Part shown: positions 420 through 8,531 of the stretch, piece by piece | How the letters are laid out: the number at the start of each line of letters is the position of its first letter | Position numbering within the stretch: position 1 is the first letter of the stretch | Source: a virus | Taxonomy: Duplodnaviria > Heunggongvirae > Uroviricota > Caudoviricetes | DNA length: 12,481 nt | IMG/VR virus record: IMGVR_UViG_2617270959_000010 | Strand: one strand, 5' to 3' | Notes under the pieces: generated by a model | Databases searched by the model: none | What the model saw: the letters and a program-made list of their open reading frames with translations, nothing else | What the model was told of the DNA's origin: nothing | Position numbers and translations under genes: made by a program

Positions 420-2253
420 ATTTGAGCTTAAGGCGTTGATCACCGGTGTCGACAGGCTTTCTCCCGCGCTGTCGAAAATGCAAAAGAAAATCCGGGGATT
501 TAAACGCCAGGCGGAAGAAGCGTCACAGGGTGGGCTGGCGCTTGGTGGCGGACTGGCAGCGGGTCTGACGCTTTCCCTGAAATCTTATGCCGATCAGGAA
601 AACGCCGCCACCGGGCTGAAAGTCGCCATGATGGATGCGAATGGCGAGGTTGGAAAGAGCTTTCAGGACATCAATAAACTGGCTATTGGCCTGGGTAACC
701 AGCTACCCGGTACAACGGCTGATTTCCAGAACATGATGCAGATGCTGGTGCGTCAGGGGATCCCGGCAGAAAACATTCTGGGTGGTGTGGGTAAAGCGAC
801 AGCTTATCTTGCGGTACAACTGAAAAAAACACCGGAAGCGGCTGCTGAGTTTGCTGCAAAGATGCAGGATGCTACCGGAACGGCGTCAGAAGACATGATG
901 GGGCTGTTCGACACTATCCAGAAGGCGTTTTATCTGGGCGTTGACGATACCAACATGTTGTCCTTCTTCACTAAAACCAGTTCTGTTCTGAAGATGGTGA
1001 ACAAGGACGGTCTTCAGGCTGCACAGAGCCTTGCCCCCATCAGCGTCATGATGGATCAGATGGGGATGAACGGGGAGTCGGCAGGTAATGCCCTGCGAAA
1101 AGTTATCCAGTCCGGATTAAGCGTTAAGAAAATCAGGGACGTCAATAAAGTCATGGCCCGCCAGAAACTCGGGGTACAGCTCGATTTTACTGACGGCAAA
1201 GGAAGTTTTGGCGGTCTTGATAACATGTTCAGGCAACTGGCAAAGCTGCGAAAACTGACCGACGTTAAGCGAACAGGTGTACTTAAGGCAATATTTGGTG
1301 ATGATGCCGAAACCCTTCAGGTGGTCAATGCACTAATCGATAAAGGAAAGGATGGCTACGATCAGATCCAGCAGAAGATGAATAAACAGGCCAGCCTGAA
1401 TAAACGTGTTCAGGCCCAGCTTGGTACGCTGTCCAACCTGTGGGAGGCAATGACGGGGACCGCAACTAACGGCCTTGCGGCTATTGGCGGCGCATTTTCT
1501 GGTGACGCCAAAAATATCACGCAATGGCTGGGGGAGTTAGGGGAAAAATTCACGAAGTTTGCGGATGAAAATCCCCGGGTTATTCGCGGCGTCGTCGGGC
1601 TTGCTGCCGGTCTTGCGATTCTGAAACTGGGATTGATGGGCGTTGGCGGGGCCATCAGTATTGTCAGCAGGATCATGTCGATGACGCCGATTGGAATGAT
1701 TGCGACGGCGATAGCCCTGGCTGCGGGATTAATTATCACTAACTGGGATGTTGTCGGACCTTATTTCAAGAAGCTCTGGGAAACCATTGGTCCTTATTTT
1801 GAGGCTGGCTGGGAACTTCTGAAGAAGGTTTTTGCCTGGTCGCCGCTGGGGATGGTAATCAATAACTGGGGACCGGTTGTTAAGTGGTTTCAGGATATGT
1901 GGGACAAGCTGAAGCCGATTATTGAATGGTTTACCGACAGTTCCGGTGACACGGTCGATGCCATTAACTCTGCGCAGTGGGGCGCGGGTGCTTATGATGC
2001 TTATGGGACGGGATTCCCGGCGCGGGGATACACACCTTATCCGGCGATGGATCCGGCTCAGGCAAACAACGCCTCCGATGCCACAGGCCCGAATCCCTTC
2101 ATGATTAACAAAGCTTCTGCGCCAAAAGTTGACGGTGAGATCAAGGTCTCTTTTGTGAATTCGCCTCCGGGTATGCGGGTTATGGAAACGCGATCCAGCG
2201 GTATCGACGTGAATCACGACGTTGGCTACACCCGATTTGGTATGGGGGGCTGA
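412..2253 (+). CDS. Tail tape measure protein
   Basis: 613-aa ORF; N-terminal region predicted helical (A/L/K/Q-rich), central Gly/Ala-rich hydrophobic segment, C-terminal Trp-rich repeats (WDVVGPYFKKLWETIGPYFEAGWELLKK...WGPVVKWFQDMWDKL); located between chaperone and baseplate genes. Confidence 0.8.
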   Translation: MAEFELKALITGVDRLSPALSKMQKKIRGFKRQAEEASQGGLALGGGLAAGLTLSLKSYADQENAATGLKVAMMDANGEVGKSFQDINKLAIGLGNQLPGTTADFQNMMQMLVRQGIPAENILGGVGKATAYLAVQLKKTPEAAAEFAAKMQDATGTASEDMMGLFDTIQKAFYLGVDDTNMLSFFTKTSSVLKMVNKDGLQAAQSLAPISVMMDQMGMNGESAGNALRKVIQSGLSVKKIRDVNKVMARQKLGVQLDFTDGKGSFGGLDNMFRQLAKLRKLTDVKRTGVLKAIFGDDAETLQVVNALIDKGKDGYDQIQQKMNKQASLNKRVQAQLGTLSNLWEAMTGTATNGLAAIGGAFSGDAKNITQWLGELGEKFTKFADENPRVIRGVVGLAAGLAILKLGLMGVGGAISIVSRIMSMTPIGMIATAIALAAGLIITNWDVVGPYFKKLWETIGPYFEAGWELLKKVFAWSPLGMVINNWGPVVKWFQDMWDKLKPIIEWFTDSSGDTVDAINSAQWGAGAYDAYGTGFPARGYTPYPAMDPAQANNASDATGPNPFMINKASAPKVDGEIKVSFVNSPPGMRVMETRSSGIDVNHDVGYTRFGMGG

Positions 2254-2334
2254 TACCCCGCTTAAACACGGGTTTTGTCGTTTAGCAGGTTCTTGGTAGG
2301 ATTAGTCCGATACTTTAATGATGGGAATAGGGAT

Positions 2335-3012
2335 ATGAAAGTCTTAACAATTTATTCAGTTGTCGGCATGGCTCTTTTACTCGGGGGATGTACCTCTCCG
2401 AAGTACAATTATTTACCAAAAACAGAAAATTATAGTGAACCTCCTGTAGGAAGCATTAATACAGCTTATGTCGGTGATTCAATGATTAAGCAGGGGGTGT
2501 CACAGAGGTTTGAAGGTCTGAAGGTTAATGCTCCTGCGAGAATTTCCTGGGCGTATACGATCACTCCGGGGATGCTGAAAAAGGTTGGTGAGGATAACAA
2601 GGCTGATTATTACTTTCTCACAAACGGTGCTGATTCAGCCAATGTGGAAAAGGCAGCCCTTGCCGATATGTGGCAGGGCATCATGGTAGAAAAGAAAAAG
2701 AATGCCTTATGTGTAATAACAGTTTTCGGTGTTACCAACTGTGAAACTAACATGCCTATCGAAAAGGTTACTCTGAATATCAGTGGTGATTCATCTTTCC
2801 AGCAAGCTCTGCTTTACAACGGAAGGGTCGGAAACAAAATCAACATTGGATATCGTGAATTTTCATCGAATACAGCACGCCCGGCCTTCAACAACGATGT
2901 TGAGTATGATCTCGCGGAGTCTAAAACAATTGGCTATAAAGGGGCTAAATTCGAAGTACTTGATGCGAGTAACCAAAGCATAAGGTATCGGGTAATAAGT
3001 AACTTTAGATAA
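2335..3012 (+). CDS. Predicted outer-membrane lipoprotein of unknown function (moron); start revised to ATG 2335
   Basis: ORF track starts at a TTG (2275), but the ATG at 2335 gives a typical signal peptide MKVLTIYSVVGMALLLGG-C with lipobox LGGC and Thr at +2; GGGA 8 nt upstream; visibly AT-richer than flanking tail genes; followed by a strong intrinsic terminator. Confidence 0.7.
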   Translation: MKVLTIYSVVGMALLLGGCTSPKYNYLPKTENYSEPPVGSINTAYVGDSMIKQGVSQRFEGLKVNAPARISWAYTITPGMLKKVGEDNKADYYFLTNGADSANVEKAALADMWQGIMVEKKKNALCVITVFGVTNCETNMPIEKVTLNISGDSSFQQALLYNGRVGNKINIGYREFSSNTARPAFNNDVEYDLAESKTIGYKGAKFEVLDASNQSIRYRVISNFR

Positions 3013-3026
3013 GCGATAATTTAATG

Positions 3027-3050
3027 AAACCCGCTTCGGCGGGTTTTTTT
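3027..3050 (+). terminator. Rho-independent terminator after the lipoprotein gene
   Basis: AAACCCGC-TTCG-GCGGGTTT hairpin followed by T7 tract (3044-3050), 15 nt after the lipoprotein stop. Confidence 0.75.
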
Positions 3051-3065
3051 ATATCCGGAGTTTAT

Positions 3066-4295
3066 ATGACGTGGAAAGACAGACTTCAGGACGCGTCATT
3101 TCGCGGCGTGCCGTTTAAGGTTGAAGAAGAAAGTGCGGGAACCGGTCGTCGTGTGGAAACGCACGAATACCCGAACCGCGACAAACCCTATACCGAAGAC
3201 CTGGGGAAAATCACTTTCCGCCCGTCCATCACGGCTTATGTGGTGGGAGATGACTGCTTTGACCAGCGCGATCGCCTGATTGACGCGCTGAATAAACCCG
3301 GTCCCGGCACGCTTGTCCATCCGACTTACGGTGAGCTGAAAGTCTGTGTTGACGGAGAAGTTCGGGTCAGCACATCGAAGAGTGAAGGGCGTATTGTCCG
3401 CTTTGACCTGAAGTTTGTCGAAGCAGGAGAACTCTCTTACCCCACATCAGGTGCGGCGACGGCGCAGACGCTGATGTCATCCTGTTCTGCACTGGATGAC
3501 TGCATCAGTGACAGCTTCAGCGGTTTCAGTATCGATGGTGTGGCGGATTTCGTGCAGAACGACGTTATCGGTAATGCCAGCATAATGCTGGGGTATGTTT
3601 CTGATGCGATGAAAGTGGTGGATTCTGCCGTATCGGATGCCGCCAGGCTGTTGCAGGGGGATATCTCGGTACTTCTGCCGCCGCCATCGTCAGGCAAAAA
3701 TTTCGTTGAGCAGGTGCAGAAAATGTGGCGTACCGGGAAACGCCTTTATGGTAACGCCAGCGACCTGGTCACCATGATCAAAACGCTTTCCGGTGTCAGC
3801 CTCGGCAGCGATCTGCAACCGCGCGGCGTCTGGAAAACGGATAGTAAAACCACCGCCACGGCGACGCAGCAGAGTAACGTGGTTGCCAGCACCCTTCGTA
3901 CGACCGCAATCAGCGAAGCGGCGTATGCCGTCACCCGATTGCCTGCGCCAACAACTTCCGCGGTGATGCAGAATGCCGCAGTGGAGCAGGCAACAACACC
4001 TGCGCAGAGCACTGGCTGGCCTTCCGTCACGCATCCGGCACTGAACAATGCACCGGCGGTGAAAAACACGGTTGACCTGCCGACGTGGGAAGAACTGACT
4101 GACATTCGCGACACACTGAATACGGCAATTGATAAGGAGTTGTCCCGTACAACCAGTGATGCGCTGTTTCTGGCGCTGCGCTGGGTGAAAGCAGATCTGA
4201 ATGCGGATATCAACACGCGCCTTGAACAGTCTGCACGGATCATTCAGCGCACACCGGATGAGGTTTTACCCGCGCTGGTGCTGGCGGCGACCTGA
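3066..4295 (+). CDS. DNA circularization protein N (Mu gp43-like); start revised to ATG 3066
   Basis: N-terminus MTWKDRLQDASFRGVPFKVEEE...GRRVETHEYPNRDKPYTEDLG matches my recollection of the conserved Mu N N-terminal domain; GGAG 5 nt upstream of ATG 3066; the ORF-track start at 3024 would place the terminator hairpin inside the CDS. Confidence 0.8.
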   Translation: MTWKDRLQDASFRGVPFKVEEESAGTGRRVETHEYPNRDKPYTEDLGKITFRPSITAYVVGDDCFDQRDRLIDALNKPGPGTLVHPTYGELKVCVDGEVRVSTSKSEGRIVRFDLKFVEAGELSYPTSGAATAQTLMSSCSALDDCISDSFSGFSIDGVADFVQNDVIGNASIMLGYVSDAMKVVDSAVSDAARLLQGDISVLLPPPSSGKNFVEQVQKMWRTGKRLYGNASDLVTMIKTLSGVSLGSDLQPRGVWKTDSKTTATATQQSNVVASTLRTTAISEAAYAVTRLPAPTTSAVMQNAAVEQATTPAQSTGWPSVTHPALNNAPAVKNTVDLPTWEELTDIRDTLNTAIDKELSRTTSDALFLALRWVKADLNADINTRLEQSARIIQRTPDEVLPALVLAAT

Positions 4296-4390: not shown

Positions 4391-4912
4391 ATGAACGATA
4401 ACGTCACGCTACGGGTAAATGGCCGGGAGTGGAATGGCTGGACATCGGTGCGCATCGGTGCCGGTATTGAACGGCTGGCGCGGGATTTCAGCGTGGAGAT
4501 CCCCCGCCAGTGGCCGGGAGATGAGGGTATCACCACGCTTCAGCCGCGCATTAAAAATGGTTCAAAAGTGGAAGTGCTGATTGGTGATGAGCTGGTGATC
4601 ACCGGCTGGGTGGAGGCGACCCCCGTTCGTTACGATTCCCGTTCGGTCAGCACCGGTATTGCCGGACGTAGTCTGACTGCTGACCTGATTGACTGTGCAG
4701 CCGAACCGACACAGTTTAACGGACGATCGCTGGTACAGATTGCGCAGGCGCTTGCTGCGCCTTTCGGCATTGAGGTGGTGAACAGCGGTGCGCCGTCGGG
4801 TGTTATTCCTGATGTCCAGCCTGATCACGGTGAAACGGTGATCGAGGTGATTAACAAAATACTCGGTCAGCAGCAGGCGCTGGCTTATGACGACCCGCAC
4901 GGCAGTCCGTGA
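4391..4912 (+). CDS. Baseplate hub-like protein (Mu P/gp44, P2 gpD-like), N-terminal-type domain only; 173 aa, much shorter than typical hubs
   Basis: N-terminus MNDNVTLRVNGREWNGWTSVRIGAGIERLARDFSV...IAGRSLTADLIDCAA resembles what I recall of gpD/gp44 hub N-terminal domains; position after the gp43-like gene. Confidence 0.5.
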   Translation: MNDNVTLRVNGREWNGWTSVRIGAGIERLARDFSVEIPRQWPGDEGITTLQPRIKNGSKVEVLIGDELVITGWVEATPVRYDSRSVSTGIAGRSLTADLIDCAAEPTQFNGRSLVQIAQALAAPFGIEVVNSGAPSGVIPDVQPDHGETVIEVINKILGQQQALAYDDPHGSP

Positions 4913-7193: not shown

Positions 7194-8126
7194 ATGCATC
7201 GTATAGACACGAAAACCGCGCAGAAGGATAAGTTCGGCGCGGGTAAGAACGGTTTTACCCGTGGTAACCCCCAGACCGGCACACCTGCCACCGATCTGGA
7301 TGATGACTACTTTGACATGTTGCAGGAAGAACTTTGTAGCGTGGTGGAGGCCTCCGGTGCCAGCCTGGAGAAGGAGCGGCACGACCAGTTGCTTACCGCG
7401 CTTCGTGCGCTGCTGTTAAGCCGCAAGAATCCGTTTGGTGATATCAAATCGGATGGCACGGTGAAAACGGCTCTCGAAAACCTTGGTTTGGGAGATGGCT
7501 CGGGGCGTTACAGCAAAACTGTCGTTTTTTCATCGTCGGGTTCATATACGTGGCCAGCTGACGTAAAACGAATTGACGTTATTCTGACTGCGGGGGGCGG
7601 CGGTGGCGGTGGATGTAACGCGGAGAACGCAAATCAGACATTTTCAGGGGCTGGCGGAGGAGCCGGAGGTACTGTTTTTGCCACTATTTATGCGACAGAC
7701 AACGATGCCGGGCCAGGGACCTATACAGTGACAATTGGTAGCGGTGGTAGTGGTGCCAATGGGCCAGGGTCTGGAAATAATGGCGGTCATAGTTCGTTCA
7801 TGACATTAACTGCGCTCGGCGGCCAGGGTGGGCAATGGGGCGGCGCTACAAATACCGCTGGCGGGCGCGGTGGCTCAGGCTCTGGCGGTTATAAAACTGA
7901 ACAAGGCGGAGACGGTTCAGACGGACAGGCGGGCCAGGCGCTATTAGTAGGCAATGGGGCATCGAGCTATTGGGGTGGCGGCGGCCGCGCTGGGCAACTG
8001 AGCGGTAATCCTGGAGTTTGCTCTGGCTCCGGCGGCGGGGGTGCATACGATAATAGCTATTCACACACGTCAGGACGTGGCGGGCACGGAGCTAATGGCG
8101 TGCTGGTAATTCGGGAGTACATGTAA
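7194..8126 (+). CDS. Tail fibre protein with a glycine-rich C-terminal domain
   Basis: N-terminal domain [55 protein letters not shown] typical of side-tail-fibre N-termini; residues about 130-300 are extremely Gly-rich ([32 protein letters not shown]...); GGAG 6 nt upstream of ATG; followed by a Tfa gene. Confidence 0.75.
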
Positions 8127-8531
8127 ATGAATGATATCTATGCAGTTGTTGATAATAACGTTGTTATTAATGTCATTATCTGGGACGGAATTTCTGAATG
8201 GAAACCAGAGGCTGGTAATTTAGTTCCGTTAAACGGCGATGCTGGCATCGGTTGGTCATATTCAGACGGAGTATTTACCGCGCCACCTCCCCCAGAACGC
8301 TCTCACAACGCGTTAGTTGCGGAGGCTGAGCTGCAGAAATCAGCACTATTGACCGTAGCAAATAACGCAATAGCACCGCTGCAGGATGCCGTTGATTTGG
8401 AAATGGTGACAGACGATGAACAGGCGTTACTGCTGGCGTGGAAAAAATACAGGGTACTGCTGAACCGTGTTGATACCTCAGCGGCACCCGAAATAGAGTG
8501 GCCTACGCAACCGGGGGAGCGGGCCAGTTGA
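8127..8531 (+). CDS. Tail fibre assembly protein (Tfa)
   Basis: C-terminus ...[48 protein letters not shown] closely matches the conserved lambda-Tfa C-terminal motif as I recall it; N-terminal third is AT-rich and unrelated. Confidence 0.8.

Follow-up and report, generated by a model that had tools for sequence, protein, structure and literature searches.

An accessory lipoprotein gene at a cargo hot spot between the tape-measure and N/gp43-like genes of an SfV-like Escherichia coli prophage, and its possible role at the cell envelope

The stretch of DNA considered here (IMG/VR record IMGVR_UViG_2617270959_000010, Caudoviricetes; 12,481 nucleotides, termed the window in the following) is the tail half of an SfV/SfII-like prophage of Escherichia coli, in which a lambda-like regulation is combined with a Mu-like contractile tail. 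The prophage is SfV-like and serotype-converting, and it is integrated beside ybhB. In its tail operon, the tail tape-measure gene (412-2253; forward strand, as are all features below unless stated otherwise; PF10145, phrog_17727) and the gene for a Mu N/gp43-like DNA-circularisation/baseplate hub protein (3066-4295; PF07157, phrog_184) are separated by an insert of 812 bp (2254-3065), which extends from the stop codon of the former (2253) to the start of the latter (3066) and consists of a leader, a gene encoding a lipoprotein of 225 amino acids (2335-3012) and an intrinsic terminator (3027-3050). The origin of this insert, the protein family to which its product belongs and the function that this family might serve are the subject of this article.

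The open reading frame (ORF) and the flanking stop and start codons confirm what had been put forward earlier from the letters of the sequence (the original prediction in the following), namely the limits of the insert and a 225-residue product with a lipobox and threonine at position +2. The N-terminus reads MKVLTIYSVVGMALLLGGC followed by TSPK; the signal peptide comprises residues 1-18 and ends in MKVLTIYSVVGMALLLGG directly before Cys19, so that a PROSITE-type lipobox is formed (LLGG before C19), and Thr20 occupies position +2. The product is therefore predicted to be an outer-membrane lipoprotein lacking a Lol-avoidance signal (Asp at +2). Its mature part of about 207 residues is predicted to be all-beta and contains two conserved cysteines (Cys126 and Cys136) and a conserved C-terminal motif, YREF...ARPAFNNDVEYD...IGYKGA. 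A probable Shine-Dalgarno sequence, GGGA (2323-2326), can be read 8 nt 5' of the ATG. The insert has a GC content of 0.416 (0.41-0.43 across its length vs 0.50-0.61 in the flanks), and the same value is found for the lipoprotein gene, with a GC content at third codon positions (GC3) of 0.407 as compared to 0.58-0.65 for the neighbouring tail genes (tape-measure gene, N and gp44-48). The visibly higher AT content claimed for the insert is thus borne out both by overall composition and by the comparison of codon positions with the flanking genes that had been proposed as a check.

The terminator is formed by the stem-loop AAACCCGC-TTCG-GCGGGTTT (stem 3027-3034/3039-3046, TTCG loop) with seven T at 3044-3050; its folding energy of -14.9 to -18.3 kcal/mol corresponds to a z-score of about -3 relative to shuffled sequences. 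The original prediction was right in recognising the hairpin and the run of seven T, but not in reading them as a hallmark of acquisition. The terminator alone is not evidence of acquisition, because the empty site has an equivalent one: in the empty junction of phage SfII, where a terminator was annotated by the authors of that genome, the structure is equally strong (-14.8 kcal/mol, z-score -3.4), and it also occurs in many E. coli prophages. All forward-oriented states of the junction, the empty one included, possess a GC-rich tetraloop hairpin with a T-run just 5' of the ribosome-binding site of N, which in the window (GGAG, 3057-3060) follows directly after the terminator. The stems vary among these junction states, and related cassettes in unrelated siphophages likewise finish in hairpin/T-run structures; probably, each cargo brings or maintains its own terminator. 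A second terminator considered after the tape-measure stop codon was rejected, its hairpin being no better than shuffled sequences (z-score -0.27).

The accessory nature of the insert becomes evident from a comparison with related phages and prophages. In a megablast search of positions 1900-3400 against phage genomes, only the two flanks matched in SfI, SfII, SfV and vB_EcoM-689R6, where they are 743 bp apart compared with 1,501 bp in the window. Among 5,426 complete E. coli genomes, 1,094 (about a fifth) contain the tail module, and 47 of these 1,094 (about 4%) have the insert. Direct reading of the junctions, with comparison loci including L001, L002 and L015-L019, revealed at least five states between the tape-measure and N genes, whose shares were estimated from an evenly spaced sample of the ranking. 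Most common is the empty state of 60 bp, which is found in SfI, SfII, SfV and many E. coli prophages and makes up roughly half of the sample. The others are the 812-bp lipoprotein insert, which exists in two alleles of about 93% identity; a gene for a secreted 170-residue protein with a signal peptide, of the type present in phage SKA5 (GC content 0.31, about a fifth of the sample); a gene for a 125-residue protein with a bacterial PH (bPH) domain; and, on the opposite strand, a gene for a membrane-anchored protein with an oligonucleotide/oligosaccharide-binding (OB) fold. Of these four types of cargo, three encode envelope proteins. The left recombination boundary is marked by the last codons of the tape-measure gene, which vary with the cargo state, and the right boundary lies at TAT(A/G)T(C/A)CGGAGTTTAT immediately before the ATG of N. 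The tape-measure/N junction thus qualifies as a hot spot for cargo genes, of which the lipoprotein gene is one. Its description as a normally tight junction does not apply, as even the empty form is a 60-bp intergenic region that holds a terminator.

These data also bear on the question whether the lipoprotein might be a component of the phage itself, i.e., a structural, tail-assembly or lysis protein such as a spanin-like outer-membrane lipoprotein. The position of the gene inside the tail operon and on the same strand as the tail genes would fit such a function. However, SfI, SfII and SfV are viable phages that lack it, as do about 96% of the related prophages, and a conserved structural component present in all related tail modules, the finding named beforehand as one that would speak against a moron, is not what the 47 carriers among 1,094 modules represent. 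Furthermore, the signal peptide exports the product, whereas tails assemble in the cytoplasm; relatives are present in integrative and conjugative elements (ICEs) and in bare chromosomes; the gene is not part of a lysis cassette, and its all-beta product of 225 residues has no C-terminal membrane helix, whereas spanins are either small and proline-rich or equipped with such a helix; and the spanin model O_Spanin_T7 matched only one of 50 relatives, with an E-value of 0.32. By its absence from functional relatives, a role as a virion or lysis component is effectively refuted and can be considered extremely improbable.

The leader upstream of the lipoprotein gene is conserved beyond SfV-like prophages. 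Six upstream regions were aligned, which stem from the SfV-like myophage and from three siphophage contexts with otherwise unrelated flanking DNA, the encoded proteins being 88%, 79-81% and 71% identical to that of the window. In this alignment, the columns of a candidate extended -10 element, TGgTAGGAT in the window (2294-2302; pattern TGnTAGGAT, TG and TAGGAT invariant), are located about 33-38 nt 5' of the ATG, and a block GGGAATAGGGAT-ATG is also conserved. The element overlaps with a leader motif, TAGGATTAGTCCGA (2297-2310), which holds the near-palindrome GGATTAGTCC (2299-2308). The corresponding 14-mer pattern, TAGGATTARTCCGA, was detected in 15 of 108 loci, in a single copy each, and wherever its position was checked it precedes the start codon of the lipoprotein gene by about 26-38 nt. 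In L039 and L040 the palindrome is perfect (GGATTAATCC). A palindrome that overlaps with a -10 element could serve as an operator, in which case the moron would be regulated rather than constitutive. Because the conserved leader motif accompanies the gene into unrelated phages, the unit transferred appears to consist of leader, gene and terminator and would represent a moron in the strict sense, with transcription presumably starting in the leader.

Of the features by which a moron is defined (Juhala and Hendrix; PMC3594210), absence from the same site in close relatives, a deviating base composition and an own terminator were found, and the extended -10 element is a candidate for the promoter. 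With the absence from SfI, SfII, SfV and most related prophages, and with a leader motif that travels with the gene, the earlier view of the insert as an acquired moron is upheld: as judged from its sequence features, it is best explained as a classic moron, i.e., a horizontally acquired, self-contained transcription unit. The gene has moreover been maintained. The two E. coli alleles (92.6% identical) differ by 24 synonymous and 11 non-synonymous changes (dN/dS 0.115), and the gene has stayed intact in the window, where N, gp44 and gp45 have suffered damage; from this substitution pattern and the intactness of its reading frame, the lipoprotein gene is considered functional and under purifying selection.

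The protein belongs to a large family that has no functional annotation. Its sole match among the PHROGs was phrog_1353, which covers the full length (E-value 1.5e-98) and is itself unannotated; no family was found in Pfam at E<=0.01 or in NCBIfam, and, with PADLOC yielding no match either, the protein remains as unrecognisable as it had seemed at first sight. A word-indexed search retrieved 1,067 relatives, and an exhaustive profile search 3,056 clusters at 50% identity with E<=0.001, of which 1,902 had E<=1e-10. Nearly all of the relatives found in the profile search are single-domain proteins of about 225 residues. A PROSITE-type lipobox is present in 232 of 251 full-length relatives, and none of the 251 has Asp at +2, a position that is taken by Ala, Thr, Val or Ser across the family. 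Invariant are C19, C126 and C136 as well as a C-terminal core formed by Y161, G163, G166, Y173-R-E, A181-R-P-A-F, N187, V-E-Y-D192, S196, Y201-K, N213 and F224. Contigs of E. coli and Shigella that encode exactly the protein of the window number at least 1,000, and it is always named 'hypothetical protein' there. Members of the family are found in species-level genomes of alpha-, beta-, gamma- and deltaproteobacteria and in metagenome-assembled genomes (MAGs) assigned to Nitrospirota, Pirellulales, Gemmatimonadetes, Omnitrophica, Sedimentisphaerales, Puniceicoccaceae and Terrimonas. Species-level relatives across phyla typically share 40-50% identity with the window protein. The family is thus patchily distributed across diderm phyla, highly conserved and always encoded by a gene standing alone; the cross-phylum identity of 40-50% more likely points to a conserved target.

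An AlphaFold2 model based on 50 relatives is confident, with a predicted local distance difference test (pLDDT) score of 90 and a predicted template modelling (pTM) score of 0.71, and shows an all-beta protein with 19 strands, in which the invariant ARPAF loop is among the less confident parts. A comparison of the model with solved and viral structures gave no match, and a single-sequence search of the PDB sequences returned nothing, a profile search only a thioesterase at an E-value of 0.25. When 50 relatives were scanned against Pfam at E<=1, LPAM_1 was the only recurrent match. Several other leads were discarded: a match to a prepilin-type pilin family of NCBIfam (17 bits, cut-off 138 bits) is noise, the UniRef label 'DKNYY family protein' of relative P0053 was not reproduced by the Pfam scan, and the lipoprotein system described by Vassallo et al. 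(2022) is a different one, as judged by the missing PADLOC match. Domain fusions were also dismissed, the longer relatives being explained by miscalled starts and one capsid-lipoprotein chimera. In this protein (P0160, 446 residues), a phage major-capsid domain (PF05065) is joined to the C-terminal 150 residues of an E. coli variant of the lipoprotein, most likely as the result of an assembly chimera or a large prophage deletion.

The genomic settings of the relatives bear on the question of function. In Acinetobacter phages of the Ab1656-2 type (48% identity), the gene is located one small gene 5' of the tape-measure gene, following a DUF4258/helix-turn-helix pair; in Moraxella phage Mcat28 (46%), it lies amid annotated tail-protein genes; and in a Klebsiella aerogenes siphophage it follows an arc/arc/antirepressor/pRha block and precedes the tape-measure gene by one small gene. 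In a survey of 151 viral contigs of IMG/VR, 51 contigs other than SfV-like ones could be evaluated, and in 40 of these an ORF of at least 700 codons on the same strand begins within 2.6 kb downstream; the long ORFs that were checked encode tape-measure proteins of the TMP_2, TMP_3 or Tape_meas_lam_C families. The tape-measure proteins of these siphophages are patchily and distantly interrelated and gave no BLASTP match to the PF10145 protein of the window. The small ORFs situated between the lipoprotein and siphophage tape-measure genes (L038, L042, L047, L058, L064, L076 and L087) are mutually unrelated, which led us to reject the idea of a co-travelling partner gene. Every one of them encodes a signal-peptide protein or a multi-pass membrane protein, one type featuring a zinc ribbon between membrane helices, and the slot 5' of siphophage tape-measure genes appears to be enriched for envelope-targeted cargo.

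A second slot is provided by P2-like phages. Fels-2, RE2010 and many Klebsiella P2-like phages encode members with 27% identity; for Fels-2, this identity extends over the full length (tblastn E-value 3e-12), and an alignment including the Fels-2 protein retains the invariant columns, i.e., the lipobox cysteine and the YREF...AR.AF...YKGA core. The Fels-2 gene, STM2726, lies between the gpA-like replication gene and the portal gene Q, and in P2-like phages the interval from gpA to gpQ corresponds to the old/tin locus, which has been validated as a hot spot of defence genes (PMC9122126). The Fels-2-type member corresponds to system #44 of Rousset et al. (2022; Table S5B), which is listed with 84 occurrences, no Pfam domain and signal peptide 'yes'. 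System #44 and the window protein thus belong to the same family at long range, and both are single-gene cargo with a signal peptide; system #44 is a divergent subfamily of P2-like phages at the old/tin locus and not beside a tape-measure gene. Outside phages, two settings include candidate defence genes as neighbours: in a gammaproteobacterial ICE (L020), this is the Shedu gene sduA, downstream of the conjugation genes traC, traU and a TraG_N gene, and in Geobacter (L006-L008) a reverse transcriptase gene together with a PRTase-CE gene and a small gene, beside an integrase and a resolvase. Further members were found next to a TelA/PLD/AAA cluster in one case, and in same-strand arrays of small unrelated genes (L026-L028).

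Because of the two precedent slots, the envelope location, the envelope type of the cargo, the neighbours in defence islands and the autonomy of the single gene, we tentatively favour the hypothesis that the lipoprotein acts as an autonomous superinfection-exclusion or defence factor at the level of the envelope, a reading that is quite possible though still short of probable. In a lysogen, the gene would probably be transcribed from its own extended -10 promoter, and the terminator would halt this transcript ahead of the tail genes. Late transcription in the SfV family uses a lambdoid Q antiterminator (PMC3851460), and during lytic growth a Q-antiterminated late transcript would pass through the terminator. 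The product would be exported, lipidated at Cys19 and, having no Asp at +2, sorted by the Lol system to the outer membrane, where its all-beta domain, probably stabilised by a disulphide bond, would face the periplasm. There the lipoprotein, acting alone, would hinder a conserved step in the crossing of the envelope, such as the transit of the tail tip or tape measure and the delivery of the genome. Among the possible forms of exclusion, such a block of genome delivery is more likely than the masking of one specific receptor. A more far-reaching proposal is that the family represents a new class of one-protein envelope immunity common to temperate phages, ICEs and defence islands of diderm phyla, in which a periplasmic lipoprotein attached to the outer membrane engages a conserved component of the route by which phages cross the envelope, e.g., the channel of the tape measure or tail tip or a conserved partner of this channel in the host, and thereby blocks genome delivery. 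We regard this as possible but rather doubtful; if the target were indeed the tape-measure/tail-tip route, the frequent siting of the gene beside tape-measure genes would be explained.

A number of observations weigh against an exclusion or defence function of this kind. A consensus scan for two-hexamer sigma-70 promoters upstream of the lipoprotein gene called no site, and it is conservation only that suggests a promoter role for the extended -10 element. None of the defence models of PADLOC-DB 2.0 matched at E<=0.1, and the literature on STM2726, WP_000866660, EcHS_A0921 and phrog_1353 yielded only an incidental mention in a microarray study. Defence hot spots also hold cargo unrelated to defence, e.g., the cytolethal distending toxin (CDT) in P2. 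The association with tape-measure genes may partly be inherited within related siphophage modules rather than recurrent. Decayed copies of the same prophage retain the gtr genes but have lost the lipoprotein gene, so that selection for the latter is not universal. Finally, many members are lone chromosomal genes without any mobile-element context, and these would fit a housekeeping role in the envelope equally well.

The last point leads to the alternative that the lipoprotein is a lysogenic-conversion or envelope-fitness factor unrelated to phages, for example in serum or stress resistance in the manner of Bor or TraT, in envelope homeostasis or in conjugation exclusion. Besides the many single chromosomal genes outside recognisable mobile elements, the location of one member in the cargo of an ICE, two genes past a TraG_N gene, and the high conservation, which is unusual for proteins engaged in an arms race, argue for such a role, and Bor and TraT are outer-membrane lipoproteins of mobile elements that act on the fitness of the host. 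On the other hand, no Pfam match links the protein to TraT, Bor or any other family, serum resistance is irrelevant for the free-living soil, marine and sediment bacteria in which the family occurs, and the repeated siting in slots for exclusion and defence cargo is not accounted for. Overall, we consider an envelope-fitness function unlikely, though less so than the other alternatives to exclusion. TraT of F-like plasmids, which mediates surface exclusion, and Bor/Iss of lambda (Bor is cited in PMC3594210) resemble the window protein in being outer-membrane lipoproteins encoded by mobile elements and, as is presumed for the latter, expressed in the carrier cell, and TraT is also of similar size. 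They differ from it in that neither the lipoprotein nor 50 relatives gave a corresponding Pfam match and in that its predicted all-beta fold has no counterpart among solved structures.

A further alternative, which goes back to the original prediction, is that the lipoprotein acts like the receptor-blocking lipoproteins Cor (phages phi80, HK022 and N15) or Llp (T5), i.e., inactivates the outer-membrane receptor of its own virion and so prevents adsorption of the same or related phages. Cor and Llp are produced upon infection or in lysogens, from genes situated close to those for the tail; they are small (about 60-80 residues), linked to the receptor-binding gene and specific for FhuA. The window protein shares with them that it is a phage-encoded outer-membrane lipoprotein, and its gene lies within the tail module of a temperate phage. 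It is three times larger, however, shows no sequence relation to them and is linked to tape-measure genes instead. A link to the tail fibre seemed to exist at first glance, since seven of nine SfV-like contigs with the identical allele share the fibre tip and the tail-fibre assembly gene, but this link is clonal: the tip occurs in 67 genomes, and all those examined represent one prophage lineage at ybhC-ybhB, so that the test for fibre-tip linkage is confounded by clonal descent. Moreover, three remnants with this fibre tip do not have the lipoprotein gene, and L031 (identical protein) and L036 (95% identical) bear other tips, which makes at least three tips in all. Relatives with 45-72% identity are encoded by phages of Acinetobacter, Moraxella and Klebsiella and by non-phage elements of Geobacter and other phyla, which have no specific phage receptor in common, and the gene is also found in phages of Salmonella and E. 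coli, in ICEs and in genomic islands. A protein with 40-50% identity between E. coli and Geobacter more probably recognises a conserved component of the envelope or of injection than a receptor confined to one lineage. There is no sequence tie to annotated exclusion families in Pfam or PHROGs, and the prophage already has an O-antigen modifier, gtrABX. Given the siting beside tape-measure rather than receptor-binding genes, the three or more fibre tips, the diversity of the hosts and the identity across phyla, masking of the phage's own receptor fits poorly and must be judged quite unlikely.

Slightly less probable still, and thus very unlikely, is a function as an orphan immunity or inhibitor lipoprotein directed against a toxin or enzyme that acts on the envelope, such as an effector of a type VI secretion system (T6SS), a bacteriocin or a muralytic tail lysin; in the last case, the protein would resemble Spackle of T4. 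The extracytoplasmic location is in accord with this idea, the invariant loop A181-R-P-A-F-N-N, modelled with lower confidence, might insert into a target and inhibit it, and the same-strand arrays of small genes in L026-L028 would provide a plausible setting. Yet no cognate toxin gene is adjacent in the contexts examined, the conservation is far above that typical of immunity proteins, and the tape-measure protein encoded next to the Klebsiella member matches tape-measure families only and contains no muralytic domain.

The closest precedent for the favoured exclusion or defence function is gp15 of phage HK97. Its gene, located between the tail chaperone and tape-measure genes, is the archetypal moron, and the protein is expressed from the prophage and blocks genome entry, leaving the receptor untouched and with an effect that varies with the tail of the incoming phage (Juhala et al. 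2000; Cumby et al. 2012; both as summarised in PMC3594210). Like gene 15, the insert of the window is a single-gene, AT-shifted and self-contained unit that directly adjoins the tape-measure gene within a tail operon, the siphophage members even share the slot upstream of that gene, and in both cases an envelope protein is, presumably, expressed from the prophage; the tail-dependent block of entry exerted by gp15 is the mechanism that, by analogy, we propose for the lipoprotein. Differences are that no sequence relation is apparent in Pfam or PHROGs, that size and predicted fold are not the same, and that the gene in the window follows the tape-measure gene instead of preceding it. gp15, a small YebO-like protein of the inner membrane, is restricted to the Enterobacteriaceae, whereas the lipoprotein is a predicted outer-membrane protein of 225 residues with relatives across diderm phyla.

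Morons in tail operons and outer-membrane lipoproteins encoded by mobile elements are known as such. The lipoprotein family itself is unannotated, unrelated to Cor, Llp, TraT, Bor and gp15 and without a match among solved structures, and the tape-measure/N junction is newly documented as a cargo hot spot in a type of prophage that is present in about a fifth of the complete E. coli genomes. The phage exclusion proteins of Gram-negative bacteria are few and mostly narrow in scope: Cor and Llp act on FhuA, HK97 gp15 and P22 SieA at the inner membrane, and T4 contributes Imm and Sp. The family described here differs in scale, with thousands of members from Enterobacterales to MAGs of Nitrospirota and Planctomycetota. 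If its members were to block infection, they would constitute a widely distributed one-gene barrier at the envelope, which would matter for the host range of phages in therapy given how often the exact protein occurs in E. coli and Shigella (at least 1,000 contigs), and they would offer a handle on the poorly understood passage of phage tails across the periplasm. If they are not directed against phages, a large, conserved and unannotated lipoprotein family that deserves a Pfam entry would still have been uncovered.

The remaining part of the window shows the gene order of an SfV-like tail region. A tail assembly chaperone gene (1-270) precedes the tape-measure gene, and N/gp43 is followed by the Mu-like baseplate genes gp44, gp46, gp47 and gp48, by genes for a glycine-rich tail fibre and its assembly protein, and, on the opposite strand, by the gtrA-gtrB-gtr(type-specific) cluster for O-antigen modification, after which the host gene ybhB is reached. 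Rfam families and tRNAs were not detected in the window. The prophage looks defective. Relative to strain M7424, N/gp43 is shortened by a nonsense codon at 4293-4295 (TGG to TGA, W410*), and an 868-bp deletion between short GGCAG repeats (window position ~4901-4905) has deprived gp44 of its C-terminal and gp45 of its N-terminal part; the junction created by this deletion was found in just four of the 5,426 complete E. coli genomes.

The integration site of the prophage is ybhC-ybhB, which we take to be the lambda attachment region. The end of the window (8815-11556, opposite strand, and 11557-12481) holds the gtrA-gtrB cluster, which is accompanied by a type-specific gene for a protein of 488 residues with a GC content of 0.34, for which no match to Pfam, NCBIfam or an annotated PHROG beyond groups of unknown function was obtained. 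Other genomes (L109-L111) hold remnants of the prophage, in which only the fibre tip, the tail-fibre assembly gene and the gtr genes are left beside int/xis. Strains M7424 (L014) and EcPF15 (L109) have near-identical regions, for which RefSeq annotates a truncated tail-fibre-assembly fragment on the opposite strand; it corresponds to window positions 8503-8631 (opposite strand) and comes just after the intact copy. The fibre, too, is annotated there in two pieces, a partial stfP and a glycine-rich protein, whereas in the window positions 7194-8126 form one continuous ORF of 310 codons. The fibre-assembly fragment and the split fibre may be a relic of an invertible or exchanged fibre segment.

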